In this document: one piece after another, positions 34,076-50,469 of the stretch
Layout: each line of letters starts with the position of its first letter
Numbering within the stretch: position 1 is the stretch's first letter
Virus record (IMG/VR): IMGVR_UViG_3300031760_000026
Source: a virus
Lineage: Duplodnaviria > Heunggongvirae > Uroviricota > Caudoviricetes
Reading direction: 5' to 3' (one strand)
Length of the DNA: 64,000 nucleotides
Translations under genes and position numbers: made by a program
Notes under the pieces: generated by a model
The model's database searches: none
Told to the model about the DNA's origin: nothing
What the model saw: the letters and a program-made list of their open reading frames with translations, nothing else

Positions 34076-34140
34076 GATTTCGGCATGATGGATCTATTGC
34101 CTTAGATCCTCTGTAAGGCTTTCTTTTTTCCTTACCATGC

Positions 34141-35551: not shown

Positions 35552-35730
35552 TTATTTGCCGTTTCCCCCTTTCAATTCATCAACATCACAAGCCGGAGCA
35601 AATATCACTTCTTGGCCACTTTTAGTATTGCCGAATTTAAAACCGCAATTACAGCAATAATGAACGAATTCTACCCAATCTTTTTCAGAAGCTTTGGGAT
35701 GACGATTGAGCCAGTCTTCTTTTTCGATCA

Positions 35731-35913
35731 TTAAATTCTCCTTTCAATGCGCTCCATAGCATTGTTCAGAATCGAGCAAAGCCAACTCGCTTCGGCTTCA
35801 GATTTGCACTTCTGAAGAGGATGCAGGGTAATCCAGCTATTCTCAGAAATATCATACTCAAGGTTATTAATCTGGACTCTAACAACATCCCCAGTTCTGA
35901 CAAATTCAATCAT
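35731..35913 (-). CDS. hypothetical small protein
   Basis: 60-aa ORF. Confidence 0.3.
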   Translation of the reverse strand: MIEFVRTGDVVRVQINNLEYDISENSWITLHPLQKCKSEAEASWLCSILNNAMERIERRI

Positions 35914-36068
35914 TAAAAAGATCCTCCTTCTTCTCTTGCCCTAAACTCATATACTGAGATTGTGTCATCCTCTCCTTGCACTCTTCTGTCCGTAGCAGGT
36001 CTCCGCAAGCCCCATAGAACACGCAGCTTATGCAGGGTCTTTCTGTAAAGAGCTCTTCGAATCTTTGG

Positions 36069-36428
36069 TCACTCATGGCAAACAGCCTCCTTCAAATGCA
36101 TCATCGCAGAGTCCATCCAGGACATATAATCTCTAGTTTTTAGATCGTGCAGAAGCTCATCATCGGAATCATAAGAGACATCTACAAATATCCTGGAATT
36201 TTCATCCTCCGGCAAAATTGCAGAGTATCGCACAAAATCTTCATCCAGATCGACATCAACAGAAATATCATACGGTCCCATTTTAGATTCAAGAAGCCTT
36301 CTATAATTTCCTTCGCGATCTTCAAAGTAGGTTCTCAAATCCATATAGGACAACCCCGTATTATTATGTAAAAAAATCATAATCTGGTCTTGACACTGGT
36401 TAATCATTTCCAGATTCTTCATTTGCAT
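36069..36428 (-). CDS. hypothetical protein
   Basis: The start is refined to MQMKNLEM (ATG 36428) with GGAGG 3 nt upstream. The track's longer start overlaps the neighbouring small membrane gene. Confidence 0.35.
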   Translation of the reverse strand: MQMKNLEMINQCQDQIMIFLHNNTGLSYMDLRTYFEDREGNYRRLLESKMGPYDISVDVDLDEDFVRYSAILPEDENSRIFVDVSYDSDDELLHDLKTRDYMSWMDSAMMHLKEAVCHE

Positions 36429-36585
36429 TATCCTCCTTCTTATTTGTCTTTCCGATAAAATATAAACCATCGGCAATTGCGCAAAGCCCCATTCCAATAC
36501 ATGCTGCCAATACACTCATGTACTGCTTAGTAATGAGTCCTCCAACCAAAATGCCAACCATAATAAACCAACTAATGAAGTGCAT
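36400..36585 (-). CDS. small two-helix membrane protein
   Basis: MHFISWFIMVGILVGGLITKQYMSVLAACIGMGLCAIADGLYFIG, with GGAGG 9 nt upstream of ATG. Confidence 0.45.
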   Translation of the reverse strand: MHFISWFIMVGILVGGLITKQYMSVLAACIGMGLCAIADGLYFIGKTNKKEDNANEESGND

Positions 36586-36603
36586 AATGTTTTTAGTCCT
36601 CCT

Positions 36604-36816
36604 TTAATACCATTTTCCGTCCGTATAAGTGTCTAATAAATCAGATGGTGCAACGCCTACAACTTTACGCATAGCATTTTCAACTGCATTGTGGAGAAGA
36701 ATATCTCGCTCACGTTTACTCAATTTCTTTTCTTTCGGAGGTAGTTTTCCTTCTTTAGCCGCGATAGCCGTAGGATTGTATTTATGTTGTCCCATCAGAA
36801 ACCTCCTCTTTCTCAC
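36604..36816 (-). CDS. hypothetical small basic protein
   Basis: 70 aa, Lys/Arg-rich. Confidence 0.35.
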   Translation of the reverse strand: MRKRRFLMGQHKYNPTAIAAKEGKLPPKEKKLSKRERDILLHNAVENAMRKVVGVAPSDLLDTYTDGKWY

Positions 36817-37309
36817 AATATTTCTGTCTTGTCAGCAAAATATAACGTTTAAAGTCATATTCTGGTGTTTTAGGCCTAAGACAGGGAAGCGACGATTCTC
36901 CCAGACTAATGAGATCGTCGTCATAATAATGAAGAGCATGTTCATAAGCTCTTCTGTTTCTTTTAGAAGGATTGCTTATATACCGGTCTTTTAGTCTTCT
37001 GATCCATCGTCCTTTCATCCAGTTACGAGGGTAAAATATCACTATTCCACCAACTTGCTCTGGAAGACTGAGATTGAGATTCTCAAAATAATCGATTACA
37101 CCAGAATGAGTGCTGCACAGAACTGTGAATCCTTGCTTGGCTAAGTCCATCGCAACCGTGCAATATCTTGGAACCCAAGCATTTGAATCGAGCGAGTAGC
37201 CCATATCATCATGCGAAAAATGACTACTCTCAAGATCCACACAGTTTTTCCATCCGGCTACCGATGACTTACCGACTCCTGGATAGCCACAAATAATAAG
37301 GCCTTTCAT
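36782..37309 (-). CDS. P-loop nucleotide/nucleoside kinase-like protein
   Basis: Walker A ICGYPGVGKSS at the N-terminus. 175 aa, the size of dNMP/adenylate-type kinases. Confidence 0.45.
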   Translation of the reverse strand: MKGLIICGYPGVGKSSVAGWKNCVDLESSHFSHDDMGYSLDSNAWVPRYCTVAMDLAKQGFTVLCSTHSGVIDYFENLNLSLPEQVGGIVIFYPRNWMKGRWIRRLKDRYISNPSKRNRRAYEHALHYYDDDLISLGESSLPCLRPKTPEYDFKRYILLTRQKYCEKEEVSDGTT

Positions 37310-37319
37310 GAAATCCTCC

Positions 37320-37583
37320 TTATCTGCAATCCACGACTACTTCATCTTCCGGCAGCAGAACTTCTTCAAGCTTATCCATAATATTGCCTGCCACCTTGGC
37401 CATACGAATAGGATCAAAATCGTGATAATACTTGGCAAACGTATTGATCATATCGTTTTGACTATATGCTGCTTCCACCTGATCGAAAATATCCGCAACG
37501 GTCTGCTCGGTCAGCATATTACAAAGCTGCATGAGAAGATGCGCATCATTTTCCCTAAGTTTGATTGCAATGATTCTTTCCAT
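37320..37583 (-). CDS. hypothetical protein
   Basis: 87-aa ORF. Confidence 0.35.
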   Translation of the reverse strand: MERIIAIKLRENDAHLLMQLCNMLTEQTVADIFDQVEAAYSQNDMINTFAKYYHDFDPIRMAKVAGNIMDKLEEVLLPEDEVVVDCR

Positions 37584-37599
37584 TTTGAATTCTCCTCCT

Positions 37600-37827
37600 T
37601 TAAATAAGCCCTAAATTTTTCAGAGTTTCCAAGTCAATAAACCGCTTTAAATAGTCAGCGTATGGCATGAGCATTGCTTTGCAAATAATCTGGATTAGGC
37701 GAACTTCTTGGTCAATTTCAAGCCGACGTTGATAACTTGGTCCAGCTTTAAGCTCCTGGTTTAAAGAATCAAGTAAGTTTGCAGCATTCTGAGATAATTG
37801 GCCAATGCGATAAAAAGGGATTGCCAT
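37600..37827 (-). CDS. hypothetical small protein (paralog of 38539..38775)
   Basis: It ends ...DLETLKNLGLI, while the paralog ends ...EDVLRNLGLL. Similar length and helical pattern. Confidence 0.4.
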   Translation of the reverse strand: MAIPFYRIGQLSQNAANLLDSLNQELKAGPSYQRRLEIDQEVRLIQIICKAMLMPYADYLKRFIDLETLKNLGLI

Positions 37828-37917
37828 GCTTATTCTCCTTTCAAAAAATAAAAAGCCCTTAGCATTTCTGCCAAGAGCTTCTCCTCTGTTTCATTATTAG
37901 GGATGTATTTTTTGCGA

Positions 37918-38124
37918 TTAATCTGCATCATCTGAATAGACGCGGGATGTGTCAACTTCTCCGTAAATATCATCATAGTCATCATCCGCATACTCTGCTT
38001 CCATGACAATCTCGTCTCCATCCTTATAAACTTCGACAATCATGTCGCCGTCTTCGAAGCTCTCAAGAAATTCTCTAGGCATTCGGTCCACACTCCTTTC
38101 ATGGATGCCATCATTATAGCACAT
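37918..38124 (-). CDS. small highly acidic protein (possible DNA mimic)
   Basis: 68 aa with runs such as EAEYADDDYDDIYGEVD. It carries its own upstream terminator and TATAAT cassette. Confidence 0.35.
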   Translation of the reverse strand: MCYNDGIHERSVDRMPREFLESFEDGDMIVEVYKDGDEIVMEAEYADDDYDDIYGEVDTSRVYSDDAD

Positions 38125-38154
38125 ATGAAACGAAAGTGTAGGATTAATTGTAAA

Positions 38155-38484
38155 TTAAATATAATCTTCCCAGAATTCCTTTGGGATCGGTTTCATTCTA
38201 AGTGCCCACATAAGCTTTCTGACGGGGATGATAGGGTAATCCTTATCCGTAGCATGCTCCGAAAAGTATTGCGGGAATTTTGGATGTAGGTAAATATCAT
38301 TAGCAAGCCATGGATCGATCTTATCCCAATAGACATACTTAGCAGTGAATCTGCGCTGCACAACAATCAGCCCAAGCCCGTCTTGCTCAAATAGTGTGCC
38401 AATCTTATACACAGGATGCTCTAAAAATATCACTTCTCCGTAGAGTTGTGTAGTGAGTTCCGGCTTTTCGTAAAAATATTTCAT
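38155..38484 (-). CDS. hypothetical protein
   Basis: 109-aa ORF, aromatic-rich. Confidence 0.35.
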   Translation of the reverse strand: MKYFYEKPELTTQLYGEVIFLEHPVYKIGTLFEQDGLGLIVVQRRFTAKYVYWDKIDPWLANDIYLHPKFPQYFSEHATDKDYPIIPVRKLMWALRMKPIPKEFWEDYI

Positions 38485-38538
38485 GAGGTAAAAAATATAA
38501 GAAGTGTAAAAAAAAAGAGGACGCTTGTAAGGTCCTCT

Positions 38539-38775
38539 TTATAATAATCCTAGATTCCTTAAAACGTCCTCTCCAACGATAGGTTTGAGTACATCGACAT
38601 ACGGATAAACAGCCATGTTAACAATTTTATTAACCAATTTGGCATCGCGCTCGATCTCCTTAGCTCGCTTTGGGGTAACTCCCGAAGCTAGCTCCTCATG
38701 ATACTCCTGCAATACATTCATTGCGTTAACAAGAATTTCGCTTACTCTGTTAAGTGGTAATGCCATTTTATACAT
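38539..38775 (-). CDS. hypothetical small protein (paralog of 37600..37827)
   Basis: See the paralog. Own promoter cassette and terminator. Confidence 0.4.
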   Translation of the reverse strand: MYKMALPLNRVSEILVNAMNVLQEYHEELASGVTPKRAKEIERDAKLVNKIVNMAVYPYVDVLKPIVGEDVLRNLGLL

Positions 38776-38852
38776 CTCCTTTCATTACAAGGAATGCAAA
38801 ATATGCGAAAAAAGAAAGCCCATGTATAAAACACAGGCTTCCAAAAAAAATA

Positions 38853-39233
38853 TCACTTAATCCAGCAAGATGACCCATAAGACAAGATGATCTCAACTGG
38901 CAGGTCAGCATTTGCCTGAGTAGCCAGGTCATTAATCAGAAGATCTCCAAGTTTTCCGAGATCATAAGGATGACAGTTGAGAATCATGTTCTGGTAAAGC
39001 CCTTCGTTCCAATGCTCAAGAACCTCAATGCCATCCCAAGTAGGTTTCGGCAGGTCATTATTCATGGCCGTCTTAGCCACTGCAAATAGTTTAGGAATAT
39101 AATCTTTTGCGATGTCGGGAACTTTTCCTTTGAGCAACTTCCATGCCACGATTGATCCAGCAGCAACTGTGATGACTACTCCGCCAATGATGAGTTCTTT
39201 TTTGTGGTCCTTTGCAAACTTTTTAATATTCAT
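38853..39233 (-). CDS. membrane-anchored hypothetical protein
   Basis: N-terminal TM helix ELIIGGVVITVAAGSIVAW. Confidence 0.35.
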   Translation of the reverse strand: MNIKKFAKDHKKELIIGGVVITVAAGSIVAWKLLKGKVPDIAKDYIPKLFAVAKTAMNNDLPKPTWDGIEVLEHWNEGLYQNMILNCHPYDLGKLGDLLINDLATQANADLPVEIILSYGSSCWIK

Positions 39234-39248
39234 CTCATAATCCTCCTT

Positions 39249-39446
39249 TTAATTAATCACAAAGCCAATTTTGCCAACGGGCTTGTTTGAATCATCCTCG
39301 TTATTTTCAATCTCTCGACGTTCGCCTTTAGAGTCTTTAGTTTTCTTATCCAGTTGCCTCTTAAGACTTTTAGCTCCCTCAAGTAACACATTGTGAGTAA
39401 ACACACAAATAGAATATACGCCAATCCAATAAACTACTTTCTGCAT
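39249..39446 (-). CDS. small membrane protein
   Basis: 65 aa. N-terminal hydrophobic helix, Lys/Glu-rich tail. Confidence 0.3.
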   Translation of the reverse strand: MQKVVYWIGVYSICVFTHNVLLEGAKSLKRQLDKKTKDSKGERREIENNEDDSNKPVGKIGFVIN

Positions 39447-39560
39447 AATGTCCTCCTCAAAAAATATAAGAAGCGTAGTCTTTCTTAAAGCCGGCCTCCA
39501 TTCCGTCTATACGCTTCTACTATAGAGTCTGCAAAACTTGCGAAAAAGAAAGGCCGTGTA

Positions 39561-39833
39561 TTAAGCGGCCAATCCTTTTTCTTGAAGATACTTCGTGATT
39601 TTATCTTGCTCGAAATCAAATGACAAAATTACCACGACCGGTGCGGCATTACCAGGATCATACCATCCAGGCTCGTCCTTATAAATTATCCATCTGCGTT
39701 CTCCTCTTTTTCCTCCAGGACCGCGTCCAAATATTTTTGTAAGAACCTCGATAGTTTCCTGTAATTTACCAGACCGAATTCTAACAAATTTAGCAAAGAA
39801 ATCCATTTCAAACCTCCTAAAAGTATTCTTCAT
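39561..39833 (-). CDS. hypothetical small protein
   Basis: 90 aa with its own terminator-promoter cassette. Confidence 0.35.
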   Translation of the reverse strand: MKNTFRRFEMDFFAKFVRIRSGKLQETIEVLTKIFGRGPGGKRGERRWIIYKDEPGWYDPGNAAPVVVILSFDFEQDKITKYLQEKGLAA

Positions 39834-39904
39834 TATAAGAGGTGAAAAATATGCGAAAAAAAAGAAAGGAAGTTGCGTAAATTATCAACTTCCAAATCTT
39901 TTAT

Positions 39905-40213
39905 TTACCGTATAGAACCAGCTGCCGTTGCTTGGTATGCGCCATAGTCGGCATGAGCCTCTCGGTTTCTACGTTCTGCATGATCTAAATCCGCAAAATA
40001 TAATTTATTCCAGAACGCATTCGCATAAGCATACTCAACATACTTTTTGCCGAAAATATGCTTCTCATGAATGTATTCCTTTGAAACAATTACTTTATGT
40101 GGATTCTCGATTATGTCTCCGCAATACCAGACCTCATCTCCAACTTTAGCATGCACAGGCAATGACCCATCATTAAGTCTATACCGCCTTAAAAGATCTT
40201 CATAGTCAATCAT
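39905..40213 (-). CDS. hypothetical small protein
   Basis: 102 aa with its own cassette. Confidence 0.35.
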   Translation of the reverse strand: MIDYEDLLRRYRLNDGSLPVHAKVGDEVWYCGDIIENPHKVIVSKEYIHEKHIFGKKYVEYAYANAFWNKLYFADLDHAERRNREAHADYGAYQATAAGSIR

Positions 40214-40274
40214 TTAGATTGCCTCCTTTCTATTAAAGAAAGTGTTTATCTTGCGAAAAAAAGAAAGGCTCTGT

Positions 40275-40583
40275 TTAAGAGCCAATCTTTTTAATAATTA
40301 TCTCATATCCAAGGGATTTCAACTGTGCTCTAAGTTCAATCAGGTCTTTAGGCTCGATAATAGTTAATCTTTCAATAATTAGTTCATTTGAAAGAGTGCC
40401 AACCACCTCTTTATCGTCTGGAAACCATTTCAAAAAAGTCTTTTGTTTAGGGATATACTTCCCATTTTTTACTTTTGAAATAATTGCCGGATCTACAGAA
40501 ATAGCATTGGCCATCGCTCTCAATGAACCATATTTAGAAATTTCATCTTCTACTCGCTTAATAACATATGCATTATAGGTCAC
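40275..40583 (-). CDS. hypothetical small protein
   Basis: 102 aa with its own cassette. Confidence 0.35.
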   Translation of the reverse strand: MTYNAYVIKRVEDEISKYGSLRAMANAISVDPAIISKVKNGKYIPKQKTFLKWFPDDKEVVGTLSNELIIERLTIIEPKDLIELRAQLKSLGYEIIIKKIGS

Positions 40584-40652
40584 AATAAATCTCCTCCTTT
40601 CTATTAAAGGAGCTGTATTAATTGCGAAAAAGAATGAGCCCTGTAATAGAGC

Positions 40653-40967
40653 TCATGCTTCGTAGATAGTAAATATCACATCCACTGGGTATTTTTCTTC
40701 TTCACCTTTTACCTGATACGTAAAATGTCTGTGCTCTTCATAGTAGCTTTTGCCCGTAGTCGATCTAGTTCCGAATTCTCGCTTAAGGCTATGTAGATTC
40801 TCCGTGATAGTCATTTCGTACTTAGAAGCTATGACCTTTTCATAGTCATAGTCAGCCAAGAGCTCAAATGCTCTAAAAGAATCCTCTGCAACGCCAACGA
40901 GATCCGTGAAGATCGGATAATCGCCAAAGTTAAACAATGCCACAACAACAAACGCTCCAGTAATCAT
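40653..40967 (-). CDS. hypothetical small protein
   Basis: The start is refined to MITGAF (ATG 40967) with GGAGG upstream. The track's N-terminal extension reads through two terminator/promoter cassettes. Confidence 0.35.
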   Translation of the reverse strand: MITGAFVVVALFNFGDYPIFTDLVGVAEDSFRAFELLADYDYEKVIASKYEMTITENLHSLKREFGTRSTTGKSYYEEHRHFTYQVKGEEEKYPVDVIFTIYEA

Positions 40968-41315
40968 GCTTATAATCCTCCAGTTTTGTTTTAGTACTTC
41001 TCTACTAAAACACCTGTAAAATATGCGAAAAAAAATAAGGATTGTTAGCTTCGAACTAACGTCTCTCGACCTAAATATCATCGAGCGTTCTACCATTGAA
41101 CTATTACATGGTCTAGGGAATTTCACCCTTCGCCTGGCATAACCCAGCGATTCCATTCTCCTCATTATAAGGAGTGTAAAATATGCGAAAAAGAAAAAGA
41201 GATGTATGGCTTGAACATACAATACCACCTTGCCAAGTGGCGTTTTACCAATTATAACTAATCTCCTTCATTATAAGAACTGTTAAACTTGCGAAAAAGA
41301 AAAGCCACTGTTTTA

Positions 41316-41585
41316 TTAGTGGCCTTTCTTTCTGATTCTAATCAGTTTGAGAGCAGCATAAGCATACTCTTTCAGAGTCTTCTTAACGTCACGTCTGATC
41401 TGTTTCTTCCTGGCGCTGTCCACCATGCTCATCAGATCCAGGTAAGCCATCATGTCGTCGATAGTCTTGAATCTCTCCTCTTTCGTCATTCCTTCATTGG
41501 AGAGAGCCTCAGACATCTCGTCAACTTTAGCCCCCAGGATTTTCATGAATTCGGCAGCCCGCTCCTCGGTCCAAATATCATTCAT
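41316..41585 (-). CDS. hypothetical small helical protein
   Basis: 89 aa. Confidence 0.35.
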   Translation of the reverse strand: MNDIWTEERAAEFMKILGAKVDEMSEALSNEGMTKEERFKTIDDMMAYLDLMSMVDSARKKQIRRDVKKTLKEYAYAALKLIRIRKKGH

Positions 41586-41646
41586 TGTTTAGTCCTCCTT
41601 TAATAGATTTTATGTCTCTCTATTAAAGAGGGTGTTTTATTTGCGA

Positions 41647-42300
41647 TTACTTAGATGCTTTGGGTTTAGAGCTGTCTTTTTTCTTATGAGGAATTGCTGA
41701 AGAAACTGCAACTGTGATTAATGCTGCAGGAATAATGATAGGTGATAAAAGAATACCACCAACAATTATTGCTCCAGTTTGCACCTTATCCGTTTTATAA
41801 GTATCTCTCGCAGCTTCTTTGCCATATTTAGCAAGTATTTTTTGATCAGCATATTTCTGCCCCTCTTCATGGTACTTGCTAAAATTCTTTGCGTAATTAC
41901 TGCTAGCGGTTTCATATTCTTCAAGTTCTGCGGCTAGTTTTGAATCTTTATGACTCTTTTGTTCGAGCCTATCGAAGTAATCGCTTTGTGCATCCGCAGA
42001 TTCCATTTTGTCCAGGCCGTATTTTTTCTCAAAAGAATCGATTATCTGCATATACCCCTGCATCGTTTCATCTTTGCTAAGCAGCGCATTTGTTTTTCGG
42101 GTTGCGATTTTAAAACGTTCATCTGAAATCTGTTTGTGCGAGGGTCTATTATCTATCCCAAATTCTCCGTATCTCTTCTTTCCGGCATTTGTAAGAGTGC
42201 CATCAGGATTCTGATACCTTCTTACGCCCCATTTTTGGCCTAAAATACCATGATGAGAAAGATCTTTTTCTCTATGCATTTCATACCCGTATAATTCCAT
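41647..42300 (-). CDS. paralog 1 of the MELYGYE(I/M)HREKDLSHHGILGQKWG N-terminal family; C-terminal TM segment
   Basis: Shares the N-terminal ~25 aa and the SD-ATG region (AGGAGAATTCAAAATGGAATTATAC) with the other two paralogs. C-terminal hydrophobic helix, then a Lys-rich tail. Confidence 0.5.
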   Translation of the reverse strand: MELYGYEMHREKDLSHHGILGQKWGVRRYQNPDGTLTNAGKKRYGEFGIDNRPSHKQISDERFKIATRKTNALLSKDETMQGYMQIIDSFEKKYGLDKMESADAQSDYFDRLEQKSHKDSKLAAELEEYETASSNYAKNFSKYHEEGQKYADQKILAKYGKEAARDTYKTDKVQTGAIIVGGILLSPIIIPAALITVAVSSAIPHKKKDSSKPKASK

Positions 42301-42311
42301 TTTGAATTCTC

Positions 42312-43046
42312 CTAAATAAGATCTTCCTTGCTTAAAGTGTAAACAAGGTCATTTACATATATGCCATAATCACCATATGTAGAGTCGATTACTTTTTTAT
42401 CGCCATAAGTTTTGACTATCTCATCAGTGACCTTAGAGCAAACATTTACGTAATTTGACACCGCAGAATCTATCGCATCTAATTTCTTTTTAAAATCTGG
42501 ATACTTACTAGCCGCATCATAATATGCTAAATCCATGGCATCATCCCAGAAAACCTCTTTAGGTGTATCTCCATATTCCTCAAGGAATGCTTTTTCTCCT
42601 CCGACGGATTTAATGAATTCTTTTTTAGCCGAATCCAAATATTTATCTGGGTCAGCATCCAGCATGGAATAAGACTCGTCTTGTATTTTTCTTGCTAATT
42701 CTTTATCCTCGGCAGAAGACAACTGCGCCTTATTCAATTTTTCTTTAGCATCTAATACACTAGCAATTTGCTCTTTACTAAAATAATTCTTTTTAAAATC
42801 CTTTCGAATCTCATTTGCTATTTCAGTATGAGTTTTTCCAGGATTATTCTTTTTAGCTTTATCTATGCCTTTTCGGAATCGTTTTTCTTTTAAGCTTTGT
42901 CTCCACCCAGCCTTCTTTTCTGAAGCAGAATGGTCACTAGCATCTAAAGGATATGGAGGACCGTTTTGTTTACCCCATTTCATTCCTAAAATACCATGAT
43001 GAGAAAGGTCTTTTTCTCTATGTATTTCATATCCGTATAATTCCAT
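42312..43046 (-). CDS. paralog 2 of the MELYGYEIHREKDLSHHGILG... family; unrelated C-terminal domain
   Basis: The start is refined to the ATG of MELYGY (43046); the track start was an upstream TTG. The first ~50 aa are nearly identical to paralog 3, then diverge. Confidence 0.5.
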   Translation of the reverse strand: MELYGYEIHREKDLSHHGILGMKWGKQNGPPYPLDASDHSASEKKAGWRQSLKEKRFRKGIDKAKKNNPGKTHTEIANEIRKDFKKNYFSKEQIASVLDAKEKLNKAQLSSAEDKELARKIQDESYSMLDADPDKYLDSAKKEFIKSVGGEKAFLEEYGDTPKEVFWDDAMDLAYYDAASKYPDFKKKLDAIDSAVSNYVNVCSKVTDEIVKTYGDKKVIDSTYGDYGIYVNDLVYTLSKEDLI

Positions 43047-43095
43047 TTTAAATTTCTCCAAATAAATTTGTGATTGATTATTGAATTGCTAACTC

Positions 43096-43130
43096 AAAAA
43101 AAGAAAAGGCTCTGTTTTAGAGCCCTCTCT
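43096..43130 (-). terminator. rho-independent terminator; same sequence as the one at 45556
   Basis: GGCTCTGTTTTAGAGCC hairpin with a flanking T-run. AAAAAAGAAAAGGCTCTGTTTTAGAGCC is repeated verbatim at 45556-45585. Confidence 0.6.
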
Positions 43131-43135
43131 TTTGT

Positions 43136-43351
43136 TTAGACAAGATCCTTCAATAGCTTCGAAAGATCATCTTTGCTCAATGCCGCCGTTACACTCAACC
43201 GGACATTCGCATTTTCACCATCAAACTTCACAGAGATCGGCTCATTAAACGTGATGCCAAGATCGACACCAAGTTTCTTCGCCACGATCTTTCTCACAAG
43301 TTTCGTGATGATTCCCTGCACAAATCCAGTCTGAATTTTCACTTCGTCCAT
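43136..43351 (-). CDS. hypothetical small protein
   Basis: 71 aa. Confidence 0.35.
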   Translation of the reverse strand: MDEVKIQTGFVQGIITKLVRKIVAKKLGVDLGITFNEPISVKFDGENANVRLSVTAALSKDDLSKLLKDLV

Positions 43352-43444
43352 TTTAGACTCCTTTCTTATAATGAATTCTTGTCATTATAAGGAATGTAAA
43401 ACGTGCGAAAAAGAAGCGGAATTGATAAACCGCTTCTTAGTTAA

Positions 43445-43834
43445 TTAGTCTACTATGATTGCTTCCGGAAAATCTCTTCTGAAATCCTCCATTGTTATTC
43501 CATACGTGTCAATTATTTCACGCACTTTTGCAATGGAGATTTCTCTCTTATTCTTCGGTTTCTTCATAAACAGCTTATTAACTTTTTGTCTATCAATTTC
43601 CGCTTTCTTCTTTTGTTCGAAAGTAATAGTCCCTTTGAGTAAGTCCAGCATCAGTTCATTTGTTTTCTCGAAATCTAAATCTCTAAGTCTAGCAAGTTCT
43701 GCTTCGGCATATTTTTTATCGGCAAGACGCTTTTGCTCTTTAACGGCTTGCTTATAATCTACAACTCCAGCAATTAGGCTAGCACAAACAGACCCGATTC
43801 CGATTATCAGATTTGCTTTTGCTTGGTAATTCAT
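43445..43834 (-). CDS. membrane-anchored coiled-coil protein
   Basis: N-terminal TM helix, Lys/Glu-rich. Confidence 0.35.
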   Translation of the reverse strand: MNYQAKANLIIGIGSVCASLIAGVVDYKQAVKEQKRLADKKYAEAELARLRDLDFEKTNELMLDLLKGTITFEQKKKAEIDRQKVNKLFMKKPKNKREISIAKVREIIDTYGITMEDFRRDFPEAIIVD

Positions 43835-43919
43835 TATCTATTACATCCCCTTTCATTATAAGAGATGTAAAATATACGAAAAATAAAGAGTCCATGCATA
43901 AAGCACAGACTCTTTATCT

Positions 43920-44276
43920 TTATTTGAGTAATCTCATGCTGGAAAGAATTTTGCCCAAAGGTTCTCCATTTTTCTTTCGTCTCTCGATCTCCAGATACTC
44001 ATTCGTGGTCGGCTTCCGTTTAAGCTCGTAGTAGCATTTCAGCGACATATCATAGATGAACTTCTCTTTCAAGTTTCTTTCTTCTTTCAGTTGAGCATTT
44101 CTACTGACGGCTTTAAACACTTTTTCACCAGTAGCAAGCATCACTGGAACAAGAACAACTATGTATTCTTTATTTTCATCCCAAAATCGCTTAGCTTTTT
44201 CAGCTTGATCGGAAAGCCAATTCTGAACTTCCCATTTCTTAATCTTAAGCTTTTCTTTGATTTCTTCCTTTTTCAT
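43920..44276 (-). CDS. hypothetical protein
   Basis: 118 aa, Lys/Glu-rich with one hydrophobic helix. Confidence 0.35.
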   Translation of the reverse strand: MKKEEIKEKLKIKKWEVQNWLSDQAEKAKRFWDENKEYIVVLVPVMLATGEKVFKAVSRNAQLKEERNLKEKFIYDMSLKCYYELKRKPTTNEYLEIERRKKNGEPLGKILSSMRLLK

Positions 44277-44342
44277 TATTTATTCCTCCTTCTAAGAGAT
44301 TTATCTCTCTATAAAAAGAGGTGTAAATGTTGCGAAATATAA

Positions 44343-44627
44343 TTACTTAATATCGGTTTCAGGAATGTCAATAGCGTGAGTATTATTCAGAGCCTCGTCA
44401 AATTTTTTGTCGTCATTTAACAGCATTTCTTCCCAGAAATCATATAAATCATACTGGCCATCAGAATCTGAAATGCTAACAAAAAATGCTGATGGATCAT
44501 CTTTATAATAGTTCTTTCCATATGATACTGAGAAAATATACTTGTGATTATAGACAAAATATGTACGAACCAAATCGTTAGGATGTCTTTTTCGTACGAT
44601 TTTTAAAGCTTCTTCATATGTAATCAT
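44343..44627 (-). CDS. small protein downstream of and translationally coupled to paralog 3; candidate immunity or partner protein
   Basis: 94 aa. Its ATG overlaps the stop of 44624..45514 (ATGA coupling). Confidence 0.4.
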   Translation of the reverse strand: MITYEEALKIVRKRHPNDLVRTYFVYNHKYIFSVSYGKNYYKDDPSAFFVSISDSDGQYDLYDFWEEMLLNDDKKFDEALNNTHAIDIPETDIK

Positions 44628-45514
44628 TTATATCCTCCCACAACATATTGCAATGTCTTTTCTGCTTCAGCCTTTATCGATGCGTTTGAAAAATCAATAA
44701 CCCTAAGTGGCGAATAACGACCAGAACTAATATAGCGAGATATGTCAGTCACGGAGTTAATTTGCGGATCTATTATTGTAACCACGCCGTCCAATGTCTT
44801 TTCGTAATTAATATAGTGGCCGTTGGCCCCGGCACGAATATGAATTACTCCAGTTGATCCATTCTTAATAGTCTTAAACATATCATACATGCTTTCTTGT
44901 TTTCCGCATTCTCGTATATCTAAGTTATCAAAAATCGAATTAAATACTCTATAGTCTCTTCCATGACCGGCCATTCCGCTTATTTCATCTATCCCATTAA
45001 ATGGTAATGCTGTGGTATTCATACCAAACATAGAATTAAGAATATAGCTGGTAGTTGTATGAAAACAATTAGCTCTTCCGCCAGCAGTTCCTTTATTCTT
45101 TGCATTAATTCTTTTCACCATTTTTAGATCTATATCGTCGATAGATTTACCAATTTTGCCGCTTGCAAATGGATCTTTACCTCCAGTTTGAATATCTACA
45201 GCTGATTTACCATTCTTAACATAGTCGCCAATATTATTCAATGCTCCAGATTTATAAAGACCATACCCAATTAATCCAGCCGCAACAACGAAAGCACCGA
45301 TGACAATTGCTTTCTTTTGCCCTGATGTTAATTTAAGCCTTTTATTATCGCTTTTGTCAAGACTTTTTCTCCACCCAGCCTTCTTTTCAGAAGCAGAATG
45401 GTCTTTAGCATCTAGAGGATACGGAGGACCGTTTTGTTTGCCCCACTTTTGGCCTAAAATACCATGATGAGAAAGGTCTTTTTCTCTATGTATTTCATAC
45501 CCGTATAATTCCAT
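44624..45514 (-). CDS. paralog 3 of the MELYGYEIHREKDLSHHGILG... family; TM helix plus candidate papain-like Cys-His-Asp peptidase domain
   Basis: The shared N-terminal 50 aa are followed by a TM helix (AIVIGAFVVAAGLIGYGLY) and a domain carrying GGRANCFHTTTSY (Cys), GANGHYINY (His) and VVTIIDPQ (Asp). Confidence 0.45.
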   Translation of the reverse strand: MELYGYEIHREKDLSHHGILGQKWGKQNGPPYPLDAKDHSASEKKAGWRKSLDKSDNKRLKLTSGQKKAIVIGAFVVAAGLIGYGLYKSGALNNIGDYVKNGKSAVDIQTGGKDPFASGKIGKSIDDIDLKMVKRINAKNKGTAGGRANCFHTTTSYILNSMFGMNTTALPFNGIDEISGMAGHGRDYRVFNSIFDNLDIRECGKQESMYDMFKTIKNGSTGVIHIRAGANGHYINYEKTLDGVVTIIDPQINSVTDISRYISSGRYSPLRVIDFSNASIKAEAEKTLQYVVGGYK

Positions 45515-45555
45515 TTTGAATTCTCCTAAGGAAATAGTTTTGCATGCTATTAAAA

Positions 45556-45590
45556 AAGAAAAGGCTCTGTTTTAGAGCCTTTTCTTTCAG
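45556..45590 (-). terminator. rho-independent terminator (duplicate of the 43096 terminator)
   Basis: GGCTCTGTTTTAGAGCC hairpin plus T-run, immediately upstream of the paralog 3 RBS. Confidence 0.6.
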
Positions 45591-45597
45591 TAGTCCA

Positions 45598-46062
45598 TTA
45601 AATTACTCTCGGTTGTAAAGCCTTGATCCAGGCGAGACATTTGCTCGAGAGGATCGTAGTTTCTTCGAGTTTACCAGTCACCACAACCAACACTGCCGTG
45701 CCACCAATGGTCAAACCAATTTTCGCGAGCCCGATGATTGCATCCATCTTTGCAGCCTTCAGCTTGTCTTTTGCTTCTTTTTCAGCAAGCTCCTGGCGCT
45801 TCTGGTCCTGTTCAATCTTGGCAGCGGTTTCTTTTTCCCGCCGTTCAAGATCCGCTTCTTCCATCTTGCGCTTATGCCTGCTGTCCAAGTCCGCATTGCA
45901 AGCCGCAGACTCCTCGTGGAATGCTCTCAGTAGCTCATGGTAATTCTTATTTGCCACGGTGTACGCTTCAGTTGTCGGATCGAGGTTCTTAAGTACCTCC
46001 TGAATACGATCTAACTCTTTCAGCATATCTTCCTGATTCATGCCTATTCTATCCCCTTTCAT
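45598..46062 (-). CDS. coiled-coil protein with C-terminal TM helix
   Basis: 154 aa. Confidence 0.35.
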   Translation of the reverse strand: MKGDRIGMNQEDMLKELDRIQEVLKNLDPTTEAYTVANKNYHELLRAFHEESAACNADLDSRHKRKMEEADLERREKETAAKIEQDQKRQELAEKEAKDKLKAAKMDAIIGLAKIGLTIGGTAVLVVVTGKLEETTILSSKCLAWIKALQPRVI

Positions 46063-46179
46063 TTAATAGGTTTCTACTATAGAAGGTGTAAAAGTTGCGA
46101 CACATAAAAAGAGACCTACTTTCGTAAGCCTCTTAAATCATGCTATTAAAATATCACTTGCCATGGACCCCTACGTATG

Positions 46180-46608
46180 CTAAATGCCTTTTCGTTCACT
46201 TAGAATCCAGAAGAACCTGCGATAGGCATCATAATACATGTCTGGTCCACAGGGAATGGCGTATTCGGCTTGTAGCTGTACATAAGGAATGCCTTCAGTG
46301 ACTGCCTTAAAAATATAAGGTTGCAATACTAATTCGTCCGTAGCAGTTCTTATACATTCTTCAACAAGTTCCATAGCCCTCGACAATTCATATCTTTTAA
46401 TTGCCAGGTTTTCGCTAGATCTGGAAATATCACTTCCATGGATCTCAGATGGACCATATGCAACCAGCATAGTATTTAACTCGGATAATTTCTTTTTCCA
46501 CTCCGGATACTGCAGGCAATAGTGCTTGAGCTCATAATACCTATGCTTTGGAATCCAATACTTGCTCCTCTGGCTTAGTTCCGGCTTCAAATCAGGCATC
46601 CTGGCCAC
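46180..46608 (-). CDS. hypothetical protein
   Basis: 142 aa. Confidence 0.4.
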   Translation of the reverse strand: MARMPDLKPELSQRSKYWIPKHRYYELKHYCLQYPEWKKKLSELNTMLVAYGPSEIHGSDISRSSENLAIKRYELSRAMELVEECIRTATDELVLQPYIFKAVTEGIPYVQLQAEYAIPCGPDMYYDAYRRFFWILSERKGI

Positions 46609-46900
46609 CTCGCATTCCGCAAATATACTTGAGAGTGTCGCAATTGCATCCAGCCATAGATAAAATCTTGGTGATCACATTAAATGGCGCTTGCTCGAAA
46701 TACTCGACTTTATTTCTATAGCGCCATAAGCTTGATGTGTTGATTCCCAAAATATCACTTAACTCGGATGTAGTAAGCCTATTTGCTCTCATGTATTCTG
46801 TCACGACTGCATCGAACTTGTCCATACGCCGAAGAAGTCTATCGCGCTCTTTAGCCTCCGCCGTTAAATATACTTTTGGCATTTTTACACCCTTTTTCAA
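46592..46900 (-). CDS. HTH (XRE-like) transcriptional regulator, divergent from the integrase gene; candidate lysogeny repressor
   Basis: HTH-like segment LTTSELSDILGINTSSLWRY. Confidence 0.45.
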   Translation of the reverse strand: MKKGVKMPKVYLTAEAKERDRLLRRMDKFDAVVTEYMRANRLTTSELSDILGINTSSLWRYRNKVEYFEQAPFNVITKILSMAGCNCDTLKYICGMRGGQDA

Positions 46901-47046
46901 TATTTTCTTGTCGCGACGATTGGAGATTAACTCTGCTTACGCTAATTGTCAACTGTTCCCATCATATTTCTATTGCAATCTGGCAACAAATATGCTATGC
47001 TCGCAATGGTGGAGCAAAAATCTTTAACAAACTTTAGGAGGGATTT

Positions 47047-48135
47047 TTGTTGAAAATACCGGAACCAAAGCAGCTCCCATCCGGTAGTTGGCGAATCCAG
47101 ATTCAGGTTAACGGCCAAAAATATAGTATCACAGACAAAGACAAGAAAATTGTCAAACAAAGGGCGAAAGAGATCTATGCCGGCAAAAATGTAGATAAGC
47201 ATATCCCTATGACAGTAGAGAAGGCAATGGAGGAGTACATAAAACTCAAAACACCAGTTCTCTCACCGTCCACGATTCTAGGCTACACCAGATACAAGGA
47301 TAACTACCTGAGGCATATTGCAAATATAAATCTTTCGAAGCTCACTCAAGAAGATGTTCAAGCTGCAGTAAACAAAGATGTATTAGCAGGAAAGTCCCCG
47401 AAGACAATTCGGAATGCTCATGGTCTACTGAGCGCTGTGCTAGGCCAATTCAGACCAAATTTTCAACTCAGCACGACCCTCCCTCAAAAGCGTCCGTACC
47501 AGGTTCATATACCAGAAGAGGAAGAGATCAAAAAGATTTGGGAACTGTCAAAAGGTACAGTCTACGAGCTGCCGATTCTCCTAGGTGCTTGCTGCGGGAT
47601 GCGTATGTCTGAAATTCGAGGCCTTAAATTCTCAGATCTGGACGGTGACAGAATCCATGTACAGAGAGCATTAGTCAGGGGTACTAGCTCGGATGGAAAG
47701 AAGACAAAGTCAGTTGAGAAGCTCACAAAGAGTTATTCTGGAGATCGCTGGATAAAATTACCAGATTTTGTCGTGAAACTCATAGAGAAGCAGCCAAGGA
47801 AATCCGAGTACATTTGCCCATATTCTGAGAATGCTATCTACAAAAACTATGTGAAATTCTGTGAGGAGGCCGGGGTTCTTCCAACTAGGTTCCATGACCT
47901 GAGGCATTTCGAGGCATCCGAAGCTCACTCAATTGGCGTGCCTGATGAATACCAAATCAAGAGACTCGGGCATAAGACGGATAACATGCTCAAGTCCACA
48001 TACAGACACACATTGCGGAGTAAAGAGCTTCCATTTGAGGAGCAGATCAATACCCGAATGAGCGAGATTTTTTCAGAATCTTCACACGAAAGTTCACACG
48101 AAAAAGAAAAAGCCGTGAAAACATCACGAAAATAG
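47047..48135 (+). CDS. int: tyrosine recombinase / phage integrase
   Basis: It is the only large plus-strand gene. Catalytic motifs are ACCGMRMSEIRGLKFSDL (R box), HDLRHF (HxxR) and STYRHT (Tyr). It has a TTG start with AGGAGGG 7 nt upstream. Confidence 0.85.
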   Translation: MLKIPEPKQLPSGSWRIQIQVNGQKYSITDKDKKIVKQRAKEIYAGKNVDKHIPMTVEKAMEEYIKLKTPVLSPSTILGYTRYKDNYLRHIANINLSKLTQEDVQAAVNKDVLAGKSPKTIRNAHGLLSAVLGQFRPNFQLSTTLPQKRPYQVHIPEEEEIKKIWELSKGTVYELPILLGACCGMRMSEIRGLKFSDLDGDRIHVQRALVRGTSSDGKKTKSVEKLTKSYSGDRWIKLPDFVVKLIEKQPRKSEYICPYSENAIYKNYVKFCEEAGVLPTRFHDLRHFEASEAHSIGVPDEYQIKRLGHKTDNMLKSTYRHTLRSKELPFEEQINTRMSEIFSESSHESSHEKEKAVKTSRK

Positions 48136-49062: not shown

Positions 49063-49138
49063 TGGTGGACCTTCAGGGACTCGAACCCTGGGCCTAAGTA
49101 TTATGAGTACCTTGCTCTACCGACTGAGCTAAAGGTCC
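49063..49138 (-). tRNA. tRNA-Met (anticodon CAT; elongator Met or Ile-lysidine type), CCA encoded
   Basis: Folded by hand: acceptor GGACCTT/AAGGTCC, D-arm GCTC-AGTCGGTA-GAGC, anticodon stem AGGTA/TACTT with loop CTCATAA, T-arm CAGGG-TTCGAGT-CCCTG. Confidence 0.85.
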
Positions 49139-49141
49139 ATA

Positions 49142-49216
49142 TGGCTGGGACACGAGGATTTGAACCTACGAATAACGGAGTCAAAGTCCGTTGTGTTACC
49201 ATTACACCATGCCCCA
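49142..49216 (-). tRNA. tRNA-Gln (anticodon TTG), CCA encoded
   Basis: Acceptor TGGGGCA/TGTCCCA (one G:T), D-arm GTGT-AATGGTA-ACAC, anticodon stem ACGGA/TCCGT with loop CTTTGAC. The T-stem is imperfect (CG(T)AGG/CCTCG with a bulge). Confidence 0.65.
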
Positions 49217-49258
49217 AAATATAAGGACCTATCATATAGACAGGCCCTTAGCTTGTGA

Positions 49259-49603
49259 TTAGTCGTTGAAATCGGCGACAACGTCGATAACGACCTTGGC
49301 AGCCTTGCGACTGATGCCCTTGATCTTGAGCAGGAATGCGACACTCACCATCTCAAAGTCCTGAACAACAAGCTCATCCTTGTCGAACCACTTCTTCAGA
49401 ACATTGTAGACACGAGTGCCTTCGCTCTTGGTAGCGGCATATTTCTGAAACCGCTCCAGCATGGTCAGTTCTTTCTTTTCAGTCATGATTGTTTTCCTTT
49501 CTTTCATTTTGAATTTTTTGGCACAAATCTTAGTTGGTGAATCACGGTTCAACCAATTAACTAAGACTTTGGTGAGGGAGTGCCTTAAGAGGTATTTGTG
49601 CAC
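49259..49603 (-). CDS. hypothetical protein
   Basis: 114 aa, between tRNA genes. Confidence 0.4.
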   Translation of the reverse strand: MHKYLLRHSLTKVLVNWLNRDSPTKICAKKFKMKERKTIMTEKKELTMLERFQKYAATKSEGTRVYNVLKKWFDKDELVVQDFEMVSVAFLLKIKGISRKAAKVVIDVVADFND

Positions 49604-49665
49604 AGCTTTTTTCTCCAGAATGCCGTAGTGCGCAATACTAACATTCTAGATTCCCTCTCTCCCTC

Positions 49666-49743
49666 TGGAGTCGGAAACGGGATTCGAACCCGCGCTATCT
49701 GCTTGGAAGGCAGATGTGCTAGACCGCTGGACACTATTCCGAC
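49666..49743 (-). tRNA. tRNA-Gly (anticodon TCC), CCA encoded
   Basis: Acceptor GTCGGAA/TTCCGAC, D-arm GTGT...GCAC, anticodon stem TCTGC/GCAGA with loop CTTCCAA, T-arm GCGGG-TTCGAAT-CCCGT. Confidence 0.85.
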
Positions 49744-49904
49744 ATAAGTTCTATGGTCATGTTGGTCACAAACCAAGCGCCATTCTTTTTAAATTGCTCT
49801 TCTGCAAAAATGCGAGCCTTTCTTTCCGTATTTGCCTTAACAATTACTGTTTCATAGTGGGAGGCATTCATGTTAAGTTCCGCAGTAACTTTCCATCGCT
49901 TCAT
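49734..49904 (-). CDS. hypothetical small protein
   Basis: The start is refined to MKRWKV (ATG 49904), preceded by TTTATTTTTACGAAAGGAGACAACTA. The 3' end overlaps the tRNA-Gly 5' end by ~10 nt. Confidence 0.3.
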   Translation of the reverse strand: MKRWKVTAELNMNASHYETVIVKANTERKARIFAEEQFKKNGAWFVTNMTIELMSE

Positions 49905-49973
49905 TAGTTGTCTCCTTTCGTAAAAATAAACCAAGATGAATGACTGGATTGCTCCGCGTTCCTCCAAATACAT

Positions 49974-50302
49974 CTAATTCACTTCGAAGATGAATCAAAT
50001 GCCTAATGGATGCCAGTCTCGTTTAAGGAAGCATCTCATCTTGGCGCTAAGGGTACTTTGGATGCCTTATTTCCTCAGCATCCATGTCTCGAACACCGAA
50101 ACGTCGAGATTTGAGAGCTTGCATTGGCTAACGGTTGCTCATCTATAGCCGTACTTAGCCTGGTTCCGGACCCAGCTCCTAAGTAAAGAGTTTTGGTAAG
50201 CAAAGGCCACCCTTGGACCGTCCAATACTTACCGATCGCATGGCGTTAACGACAAACACCATGCCTAGTTTTAAGTGACCACAGTCGTTATTGCAGCCAC
50301 TT
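49974..50302. other. 330-bp ORF-free gap inside the tRNA cluster; candidate structured ncRNA or degenerate tRNA-derived element
   Basis: No ORF of 60 aa or more on either strand, flanked by tRNA genes, and GC content locally higher than its surroundings. I could not fold a canonical tRNA from it. Confidence 0.3.
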
Positions 50303-50388
50303 CTGGTACCGCTGACGGGACTTGAACCCGTACGTCCGAAGACTGCAGATTTTAAGTCTGCTGTGTCTGCCGATTCCACCACAGCGGC
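50303..50388 (-). tRNA. tRNA-Leu (anticodon TAA), type II with long variable arm, CCA encoded
   Basis: Acceptor GCCGCTG/CAGCGGT, anticodon stem GCAGA/TCTGC with loop CTTAAAA, variable-arm hairpin GTC-TTCG-GAC, T-arm ACGGG-TTCAAGT-CCCGT. Confidence 0.85.
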
Positions 50389-50393
50389 AAATA

Positions 50394-50469
50394 TGGTCTG
50401 AGTGGGGAGACTCGAACTCCCGGCATCGTGATCCCAAATCACGCATTCTGCCAACTGAATTACACCCAG
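50394..50469 (-). tRNA. tRNA-Pro (anticodon TGG), CCA encoded
   Basis: Acceptor CTGGGTG/CACTCAG, D-arm ATTC-AGTTGGCA-GAAT, anticodon stem CGTGA/TCACG with loop TTTGGGA, T-arm GGGAG-TTCGAGT-CTCCC. Confidence 0.8.

Follow-up and report, generated by a model that had tools for sequence, protein, structure and literature searches.

Bacterial polymorphic toxin systems were reportedly surveyed by Zhang et al. in 2012 and are said to include the CDI, Rhs and LXG/T7SS systems, among them the LXG toxin YokI/YokJ of prophage SPbeta. In phage T4, a short N-terminal peptide suffices to load diverse cargo (the internal proteins IPI-III and Alt, including an ADP-ribosyltransferase) into the prohead for injection, and this capsid-targeting signal is removed by the prohead protease. 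Other phage proteins that are packaged and ejected include P1 Dar and P22 gp7, gp16 and gp20. To our knowledge, phage-borne polymorphic toxins have so far been known from one carrier domain, MuF, and the choice of co-injected proteins by tailed phages of Gram-positive bacteria is largely unexplained. The MuF polymorphic toxins of temperate phages were described by Jamet et al. (2017; PMC5576092), with delivery together with the DNA as a hypothesis, and reviews of packaged and ejected phage proteins are available (PMC9026906, PMC9958956, PMC9024508). Here we describe a locus in a 64,000-nucleotide (nt) stretch of tailed-phage DNA (IMG/VR record IMGVR_UViG_3300031760_000026; the whole stretch is referred to as the window), in which three genes, P1, P2 and P3, encode a common N-terminal module, the DUF7211 tag, followed by unrelated C-termini. 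These genes are probably accessory cassettes of a phage-borne polymorphic effector/toxin system that is defined by the tag.

The three genes and a 94-residue open reading frame (ORF) next to P3 were all encoded on the minus strand (Table 1). The real start of P2 is the ATG at 43046, not the TTG at 43061 that had been used in the program-made ORF list. P2 and P3 were identical at 49 of 52 N-terminal residues and their DNA formed a direct repeat of 173 nt with 88% identity; P1 was identical to P3 at 24 of 26 N-terminal residues, and a 108-nt repeat family was present in three copies with 82-83% identity. Similarity between the copies began about 20 nt 5' of the ATG, at the ribosome-binding site (RBS), and ended at about codon 52 in P2 and P3 and codon 26 in P1, beyond which the three sequences were unrelated. 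All three proteins carried SHHGILG(Q/M)KWG at residues 15-25, and their N-terminal sharing was well above chance level. These results agreed with a preliminary description of the locus, which had proposed about 50 shared residues for P2 and P3, about 25 for P1 and complete divergence thereafter. Its statement that each gene had a duplicated upstream terminator and RBS held in part: the RBS was common to all three genes, and a terminator hairpin (read on the minus, coding strand as GGCTCTGTTTTAGAGCC or GGCTCTAAAACAGAGCC) with a T-run preceded both P3 and P2, but P1, which starts 11 nt after P2, had only the RBS and tag in common with them and no terminator of its own.

The same description had matched the N-terminal module to no recognised family. 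This claim was not upheld, as the module corresponds to Pfam DUF7211 (PF23847), which is catalogued without a described function and whose model spans the 25-residue core only. Three PHROGs of no assigned function (32444, 7021 and 11022) also matched the tag; P1 matched phrog_32444 with an E-value of 5e-15, and the PHROG matches of P2 were weak and all to families of no assigned function. DUF7211 was matched by 55 of the 66 full-length P3 homologues and, above the cut-off, by three syntenic proteins of close relatives (scores of 34.4 bits for a 376-residue protein of contig L087, and 34.8 and 28.5 bits for 187- and 449-residue proteins of contig L086). The tag consensus was HHGxxGxxWG, followed by NGPPYPL..DHS.SEKKAGWRKSL in the P2 and P3 type or by VRRYQN.DG.LT.AGKKRY in the P1 type, with H16, G18, G21, W24 and G25 invariant in the tag alignment (A1). 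When 1.84 billion representatives were searched with the tag profile, 39,266 representative clusters were found at E≤1e-3 and 7,243 at E≤1e-10, and the motif began within the first 30 residues in 84% of 429 family ORFs from about 158 loci. Comparison of the first 50 codons of P2 and P3 revealed 7 synonymous and 3 non-synonymous changes, and the tags differed from those of relatives by 11-14 synonymous and 1-3 non-synonymous codon changes. Since the differences were mostly synonymous, it is the peptide itself that is constrained and not the DNA alone; the tag is under purifying selection.

Variation at the locus was then followed in three close relatives, contigs L086, L087 and L088, which share with the window an integrase-96-139-147/154 backbone at 86-91% DNA identity. 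The 17-nt terminator sequence was present exactly twice in each relative, always just 5' of a DUF7211 slot. In the window, slot A contains P3 and the 94-residue ORF and slot B contains P2 and P1. In L086, slot A is occupied by a tagged 449-residue protein, a different papain variant (P0017) and an 89-residue ORF, and slot B by a tagged GNAT protein and a tagged 187-residue protein; in L087, slot A has a tagged 376-residue PF15644 protein with an 85-residue ORF, and slot B a tagged 287-residue protein and a tagged GNAT protein. BLASTN identity ended right behind the tag-coding DNA, at about nt 324 of P3 (past the tag, linker and hydrophobic helix), nt 165 of P2 and nt 130 of P1, and restarted at the next backbone gene. 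As the DNA breakpoints lie directly after the tag, the locus is polymorphic, and the tag-coding DNA holds the 5' breakpoint at which cassettes are replaced. A polymorphic cassette had been suggested from the window sequence, and the exchange of C-termini at the same two slots in L086, L087 and L088 bore this out; in the survey of relatives for C-terminal variants, other papain variants, GNAT domains and unassigned ends were found behind the same tag.

Among 66 full-length homologues of P3, Cys150 and His233 were invariant and Asn149, Asp249 and Gln251 nearly so. PF15644 ('Papain fold toxin 1, glutamine deamidase') was matched by 40 of these homologues (best E-value 5e-8), and the syntenic 376-residue protein of L087 scored 42.9 bits against a cut-off of 24.1. 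In the AF2 model, which had a pLDDT of >90 over residues 120-296, the domain had a predicted papain-like fold with Cys, His and Asp in papain order. The best matches in a viral structure library were phage proteins annotated as 'Papain fold toxin 1', 'Minor capsid protein', 'Capsid maturation protease and MuF-like fusion protein' and 'VIP2-like toxin'; by structure match, a domain of the P3 type occurs fused to MuF-like minor-capsid proteins in actinophages. SpvD, OspI, AvrPphB, Cif, C39 peptidases and a CdiA-CT toxin were the best structural matches to the domain; their catalytic Cys, His and Asp follow each other as in P3, but sequence identity is only 7-17%. A search of PDB sequences with the P3-family profile gave insignificant matches only (E 0.09 or worse). 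The P3 C-terminus is thus assigned from homologues and model to the 'Papain fold toxin 1' family, as a predicted protease or deamidase, in line with the papain-like peptidase that had been suspected from its Cys, His and Asp residues. A transmembrane helix had also been proposed for P3, and a hydrophobicity scan placed a hydrophobic helix at about residues 68-88, preceded by a stretch conserved in the family alignment (A3), 'LT..QKKAI.IGA'; the same scan placed one near the C-terminus of P1 and none in P2. Application of the positive-inside rule to the internal hydrophobic helix of 66 proteins gave net charges of +2.3 and +2.2 on the two flanks and no clear topology.

No recognisable domain was found in the C-termini of P1 and P2 by Pfam and PDB sequence searches, and no homologue of these regions was found among the ORFs of about 160 fetched loci. 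Neither NCBIfam nor PADLOC yielded a meaningful match for P1-P3 or their neighbours. Megablast of positions 41000-47000 and tblastn of P3 against INPHARED phages returned nothing, and short-tag queries alone gave phage records. In the wider family, the recognisable C-terminal domains among 89 diverse tagged proteins were GNAT (nine proteins), PF15644 (eight), CW_7 (four) and ADP-ribosyltransferase (one, P0082), the rest having no Pfam match. The tagged 287-residue protein at slot B of L087 (P0067; L087 positions 10001-10864) had a faint match to Tox-MPTase3 (metallopeptidase toxin 3; E 0.096), a mere hint that further predicted polymorphic-toxin domains occur behind the tag.

The ATG of the 94-residue ORF overlaps the stop codon of P3 as ATGA, consistent with the translational coupling that had been claimed for the pair. 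Its homologues lie downstream of P3-type genes in loci L004 (46-47% identity) and L007 (27%), and other papain variants (L086, L087 and L005) are followed by different, unrelated small ORFs. Of 58 papain-type genes in the fetched loci, 55 had a same-strand ORF of 53-161 residues at -31 to +122 nt downstream. Once duplicate loci had been removed, 53 downstream ORFs were left, of which 25 fell into one BLAST cluster with the 94-residue protein, six formed a second family and the rest were pairs or singletons. A profile search with the 94-residue protein found 27 database relatives, each of 75-95 residues. The protein is acidic and had no signal peptide or membrane segment by inspection. Its AF2 model (one helix, then four strands) was poor, with a pLDDT of 53, too poor for a fold search, and a weak match to PepSY (E 0.02) is a lead only. 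The proposed immunity-like arrangement was reinforced by the frequency of the downstream ORFs and by the change of partner with the toxin variant; this genomic association fits a cognate immunity or inhibitor role for the 94-residue protein. In Gordonia phage Secretariat (L002), gp15 (6275-7918), which is annotated 'acetyltransferase', carries the tag and a papain-type profile match (E 2e-15), and gp16 (77 residues, 7930-8163) follows it, an actinophage version of the layout of toxin and small partner.

To place the tag in its wider context, gene neighbourhoods were compared at 156 loci, made up of 81 loci (76 from the IMG/VR scan and five others) and 75 in GTDB species genomes. TerL and/or portal genes lay within 10 kb of DUF7211 genes at 117 of the 156 loci; both were found at 96 of these, with a DUF7211 gene between them at 67 of the 96. 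The corresponding counts were 60, 47 and 39 in the 81-locus set and 57, 49 and 28 in the GTDB set, whose hosts were mostly Lachnospiraceae, Ruminococcus, Oscillospiraceae and Butyrivibrio; relatives carrying the tag occur in gut and rumen Clostridia. The tagged genes (D) share the strand of TerL and portal, and [D D] TerL [D D D] portal is the typical arrangement. As a rule a locus had at least two tagged genes, and arrays reached ten. In L004, seven consecutive tagged genes lie between TerL and portal, the last being a P3 homologue with its small partner, and L005 and L007 were similar. No MuF-domain gene was present in the gene lists of these three loci, so the tag may fill the MuF role there.

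The linkage extended to isolated phages. In Faecalibacterium phage FP_oengus the tagged gp69 lies between TerL and portal, and Secretariat has four tagged genes around TerL (gp12, gp14, gp15 and gp17); gp8 of Arthrobacter phage Gordon, another cultivable carrier, is tagged as well. Of 126 phage records found with the consensus tag, most belonged to phages of Gordonia, Streptomyces and Arthrobacter; among the matches listed, nearly all were annotated as hypothetical (one as an acetyltransferase) and most were near the terminase. Shared ancestry of FP_oengus and the actinophage clusters with the tag has previously been proposed (bioRxiv 10.1101/842583). L167, the closest relative with DNA beyond the RNA polymerase gene (polymerase 77% identical), has the order D-TerL-D-portal. 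The window phage probably also has core tagged genes beside its terminase, outside the window.

Two core subfamilies of tagged proteins were seen, both unannotated. Members of the first (L138 9405-9986, L167 16267-16743 and others at many loci, immediately 5' of TerL) consist of the tag, 'SD.ELR..(I/V)NRL.LE..Y' and a C-terminal membrane anchor; members of the second (L138 9998-10882, Secretariat gp17, P0067 and P0089) end in 'GYDA(I/V).D.ND...P(I/M)I(L/F)'. The tagged gene that lies right before TerL is unlikely to encode the small terminase, since several copies occur per phage; in L138 a separate upstream 112-residue ORF could, judged by eye, have this role. A minority of tagged genes lay outside the head region.

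Table 1. Positions of the cassette genes, their parts and other features of the window.
Feature	Position	Strand	Description or basis
P1	41647-42300	minus	217 residues; DUF7211-tagged; tag variant WGVRRYQNPDGTLTNAGKKRY; helical middle; C-terminal membrane anchor
P1 tag, residues 1-48	42157-42300	minus	Tag alignment, DNA repeat alignment
P1 C-terminal hydrophobic anchor, about residues 176-204 (172-205 in the scan), then Lys-rich tail	41689-41775	minus	Hydrophobicity scan
P2	42312-43046	minus	244 residues; DUF7211-tagged; C-terminus soluble, mostly helical
P2 tag, residues 1-52	42891-43046	minus	Tag alignment, DNA repeat alignment
P3	44624-45514	minus	296 residues; tag, K/S-rich linker, hydrophobic helix, predicted papain-fold toxin domain
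P3 tag, residues 1-52	45359-45514	minus	MELYGYEIHREKDLSHHGILGQKWGKQNGPPYPLDAKDHSASEKKAGWRKSL; sub-threshold DUF7211 match; alignment A1
P3 hydrophobic helix, Gly/Ala-rich, about residues 68-88	45251-45313	minus	Hydrophobicity scan; AF2 confidence low
P3 papain-fold domain, residues ~120-296	44627-45157	minus	Homologue alignment, AF2 model
P3 predicted catalytic codons	45065-45067 (Cys150), 44816-44818 (His233), 44768-44770 (Asp249)	minus	
94-residue acidic protein	44343-44627	minus	Candidate immunity protein/inhibitor; ORF overlapping P3 stop
Terminator hairpin and T-run directly 5' of P3	45563-45579	minus	Left edge of slot A
Terminator hairpin 5' of P2	43108-43124	minus	Left edge of slot B
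P3 Shine-Dalgarno sequence AGGAG	45523-45527	minus	Within repeated block
Direct repeat, 173 nt	42895-43067 and 45363-45535		
89-residue backbone gene	41316-41585	minus	Directly after P1
154-residue backbone gene	45598-46062	minus	Directly upstream of P3
Promoter-like repeat copies	27691, 38795, 39530, 39843, 40614, 41015, 41175, 41281, 43395, 43866, 44322, 46087; also 41615-41646	minus	TTTTTCGCAnnTTTTACA, then TATAAT-like box
915-residue protein	1307-4054	minus	phrog_4291 match
Tyrosine integrase	47047-48135	opposite to cassettes	
Five tRNA genes (Met, Gln, Gly, Leu, Pro)	49063-50469	minus	Between lysis genes and integrase

The window is a portion of the genome of a tailed temperate phage, about 80-84 kb in size and of metagenomic origin (the window matched an 80.8-kb contig), whose lineage has a capsid-protease fusion as well as a large RNA polymerase of the YonO type. 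Phage genes in the window include those for a 1331-residue DNA polymerase/primase, baseplate proteins and a CHAP-LysM endolysin, and the tape measure and distal tail protein genes lie just outside it. The 915-residue protein matched phrog_4291 (annotated 'RNA-dependent RNA polymerase') from end to end, had helix-turn-helix segments at both ends, and is taken by us to be the YonO-like single-subunit RNA polymerase; in relatives the gene for this polymerase lies a few kb upstream of TerL. Its N-terminal motif, HYGTPRHSGRYPWGSG, slightly resembles the tag, not significantly so, and it was rejected as a diverged tag (hhalign probability 0.2%). The tRNA genes seem to be inside the phage genome and not part of a host flank. 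Of the backbone genes that border the slots, the 89-residue gene, which is kept after slot B in L086 and L087, had a sub-threshold DUF6176 match (25.3 against a cut-off of 27 bits). The 154-residue gene, which is the conserved 147/154-residue backbone gene of the relatives, encodes a coiled coil and a C-terminal hydrophobic segment; its NCBIfam match to alpha-xenorhabdolysin family subunit A was weak (E 2.6e-4) and fell far short of the cut-off.

A promoter-like repeat was detected a few tens of nt 5' of nearly every small early-region gene. It had 12 matches against 0.14 expected, all in a single orientation and spanning 27691-46104. Both cassette units, P3 with the 94-residue ORF and P2 with P1, were without this repeat and sit directly behind the terminators.

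When these features were set against the described systems, the DUF7211 system was found to be closest to the MuF toxins yet outside that family, with no MuF domain and another gene position. The two are alike in being phage-encoded, in combining a constant N-terminus with variable C-terminal domains of toxin or predicted toxin type, often with a small downstream gene for an immunity or candidate immunity protein, in their linkage to the packaging module and in the papain-fold domain of the P3 type, which is also found on MuF-like proteins. They differ in that P1-P3 had no match to the MuF domain (PF04233, PF06152 or MuF3/4) at E≤1, in the length of the constant part (about 25-50 residues for DUF7211, about 300 for MuF) and in copy number (several to ten per phage for DUF7211, one for MuF). 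Furthermore, DUF7211 genes flank TerL upstream of the portal gene, whereas MuF genes follow it; the copies in the window adjoin the integrase, and the tag may be internal or repeated. The cargo of the T4 capsid-targeting signal resembles the tagged proteins in its short N-terminal peptide and variable host-acting cargo, including an ADP-ribosyltransferase on one DUF7211 protein, but the signal has no sequence relation to DUF7211, which is not known to be cleaved and whose part in packaging is a proposal. With bacterial polymorphic toxins the tagged proteins share a modular N-terminal part, a swappable C-terminal domain that is a predicted toxin in P3, a candidate cognate immunity gene, recombination at a conserved 5' region and, by prediction, toxin families (PF15644 and ADP-ribosyltransferases); unlike them, they have no known trafficking domain or secretion system, and their carrier is a virus.

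The preliminary description had read the locus as a constant N-terminal module with variable effector ends, a papain-like toxin and an immunity-like partner, and this central reading was strengthened by the swapping of ends between relatives and by the regular presence of an ORF behind papain-type genes. In the mechanism that we propose, the tag would be a short docking peptide that brings the fused cargo to a common partner, most likely a component of the assembling head such as the portal, the capsid-protease fusion or the terminase. Virions would take up the tagged proteins and pass them to the next host along with the DNA; P2 and P1 would add to this cargo, and once ejected, P1 and the hydrophobic helix of P3 may become embedded in the target membrane. 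The 94-residue protein would bind and neutralise the P3 enzyme in the producing cell or the lysogen, and the terminators that lead each slot may shield the cassettes from early promoter-driven transcription of their neighbours. Capsid loading and delivery into the infected cell are inferred from the gene neighbourhood in relatives. The head-docking role is proposed because of the strong same-strand linkage to terminase and portal genes, the restriction of the tag to one phage lineage with a capsid-protease fusion, its additional use on genes scattered in other modules, the presence of the same toxin fold on MuF minor-capsid proteins, and the parallels with MuF toxins and T4 capsid-targeting cargo, including the tagged ADP-ribosyltransferase P0082. 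More tentatively, it is possible that DUF7211 is the general capsid cargo-loading peptide of one very large siphophage lineage (Clostridia gut prophages, FP_oengus and the actinophage clusters AU, DJ, BI and CC), with tagged proteins being docked to the head, packaged and injected.

Several observations weigh against this interpretation. All three window proteins scored below the DUF7211 gathering score of 27 bits (P1, 23.6; P2, 25.4; P3, 13.8), and P3 itself had no PF15644 match at E≤0.01; as its homologues do match, its membership is transitive. AF2 gave no confident structure for the tag or linker of P3. The cassettes follow closely on the integrase and two small regulators, where they are among the first genes; this is an early or lysogeny region with early-type promoter repeats, outside the head module. 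The helix between tag and toxin in P3 could place the toxin domain outside the membrane, a poor fit with a partner that lacks an export signal. A literature search found no virion proteomics for any DUF7211-carrying phage. Finally, the tag can be internal or present in up to five copies per protein, unlike the prediction for a signal that needs a free N-terminus. In the gene at 9512-10435 of L052, for example, an internal tag (HHGIKGQKWGVKNGPPYPL) follows a His/Asp-rich HD-like domain.

That gene of L052 belongs to a replication/nucleotide-metabolism module, beside a family-B-like DNA polymerase, a dCMP deaminase and ThyX, and is not near TerL; similar single-copy loci were L051-L059, L061, L065, L151, L154, L156 and L161. 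Proteins P0121-P0128 and others, of 780-1570 residues, had four or five DUF7211 modules spaced 150-600 residues apart, for which a role as polyprotein cargo is one possible reading. Some of the multi-tag junctions resembled fused neighbour genes (an RBS-like GG and Met). The idea that all multi-tag proteins are fused-ORF artefacts was rejected; the internal tags of P0057 and P0069 have no start codon, and true repeats therefore exist.

The main rival explanation, which we regard as unlikely, is that no tagged protein is ever packaged: all would work in the producing cell, in its interior or at its membrane, and the tag would bind a phage or host partner in the cytoplasm. The variable ends would then serve superinfection exclusion, abortive infection, anti-defence or lysis timing, and the papain enzyme with its partner would be a toxin-antitoxin pair for prophage addiction or defence. 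Such a role would suit cassettes that adjoin the integrase and regulators, a typical site of lysogeny-expressed accessory genes, as well as a partner that looks cytoplasmic and the presence of the tag in a replication-module enzyme; moreover, about 27% of the 429 family ORFs had a membrane anchor or internal hydrophobic helix, and P1 is tail-anchored. However, no PADLOC defence model was found for P1, P3, the 94-residue protein or neighbours, and P2 had only a marginal match to typeIV_Cas8 (Csf1; E 0.0056, 14 bits). The same-strand linkage to TerL and portal would be unexpected if the genes served defence or exclusion, the cassettes follow terminators and lack the promoter repeat of the neighbouring small genes, and MuF head proteins carry the same toxin fold as a fusion.

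Two further explanations are less likely than an intracellular or membrane role. It is improbable that the cassettes encode bacteriocin-like interbacterial toxins of lysogens, which would be freed by lysis of a subpopulation or by tag-recognising export, would use the hydrophobic helix for entry and would kill non-immune competitors. The architecture of a polymorphic toxin with immunity, the membership of PF15644 among the toxin domain families of secreted polymorphic toxins, the CW_7 cell-wall-binding repeats of some members and the dense gut communities of the hosts are compatible with such toxins, but no signal peptide, LXG/WXG, Rhs or other known export or receptor-binding domain was found, the tag has just about 50 residues, most members are small and soluble, and the family also occurs in cluster AU actinophages described as lytic. 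Least probable of all are fast-evolving, scaffold-like head-assembly components with no toxin function and an N-terminus shared by recent tandem duplication and gene conversion: conserved core members do flank TerL in most relatives and many C-termini are low-complexity helical regions, but the C-termini include enzyme families (papain-fold toxin, GNAT and ADP-ribosyltransferase) that come with candidate cognate partners of small size, close relatives have other cassettes in place of those in the window, which are dispensable, and recent conversion alone is ruled out by the mostly synonymous tag changes together with conservation of the tag from Clostridia phages to actinophages.

The tag family itself is not new, since it is already present in Pfam and PHROGs as function-less entries. 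A literature search for DUF7211, PF23847 or the motif strings found nothing relevant, and, as far as the searchable literature goes, three things are new: the interpretation of the tag as what stays constant in a very large system of phage polymorphic effectors or toxins, the pairing of toxin and partner, and the cassette exchange between relatives. As a phage polymorphic toxin module, DUF7211 would be a second carrier, cut down to a short peptide, which is present in some 39,000 protein clusters and in common phages of the human gut and soil. With it as a search handle, a large and so far hidden set of effectors, toxins and immunity proteins of phages in gut Clostridia could be traced, and it would explain the unannotated gene arrays around the terminase in several SEA-PHAGES clusters. 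The tag is also a candidate for a portable capsid-loading signal, which could be useful for engineered phages that deliver proteins. If the cargo-loading proposal is true, these phages would have a modular, virus-borne system of protein delivery, with papain-fold toxins and their immunity proteins, GNAT proteins, ADP-ribosyltransferases and membrane-inserting proteins as payloads; its tens of thousands of payload variants would make it a far more compact counterpart of the MuF toxins and of the T4 capsid-targeting sequence. Should packaging prove wrong, the locus still illustrates cleanly how closely related phages exchange cassettes at a conserved tag.

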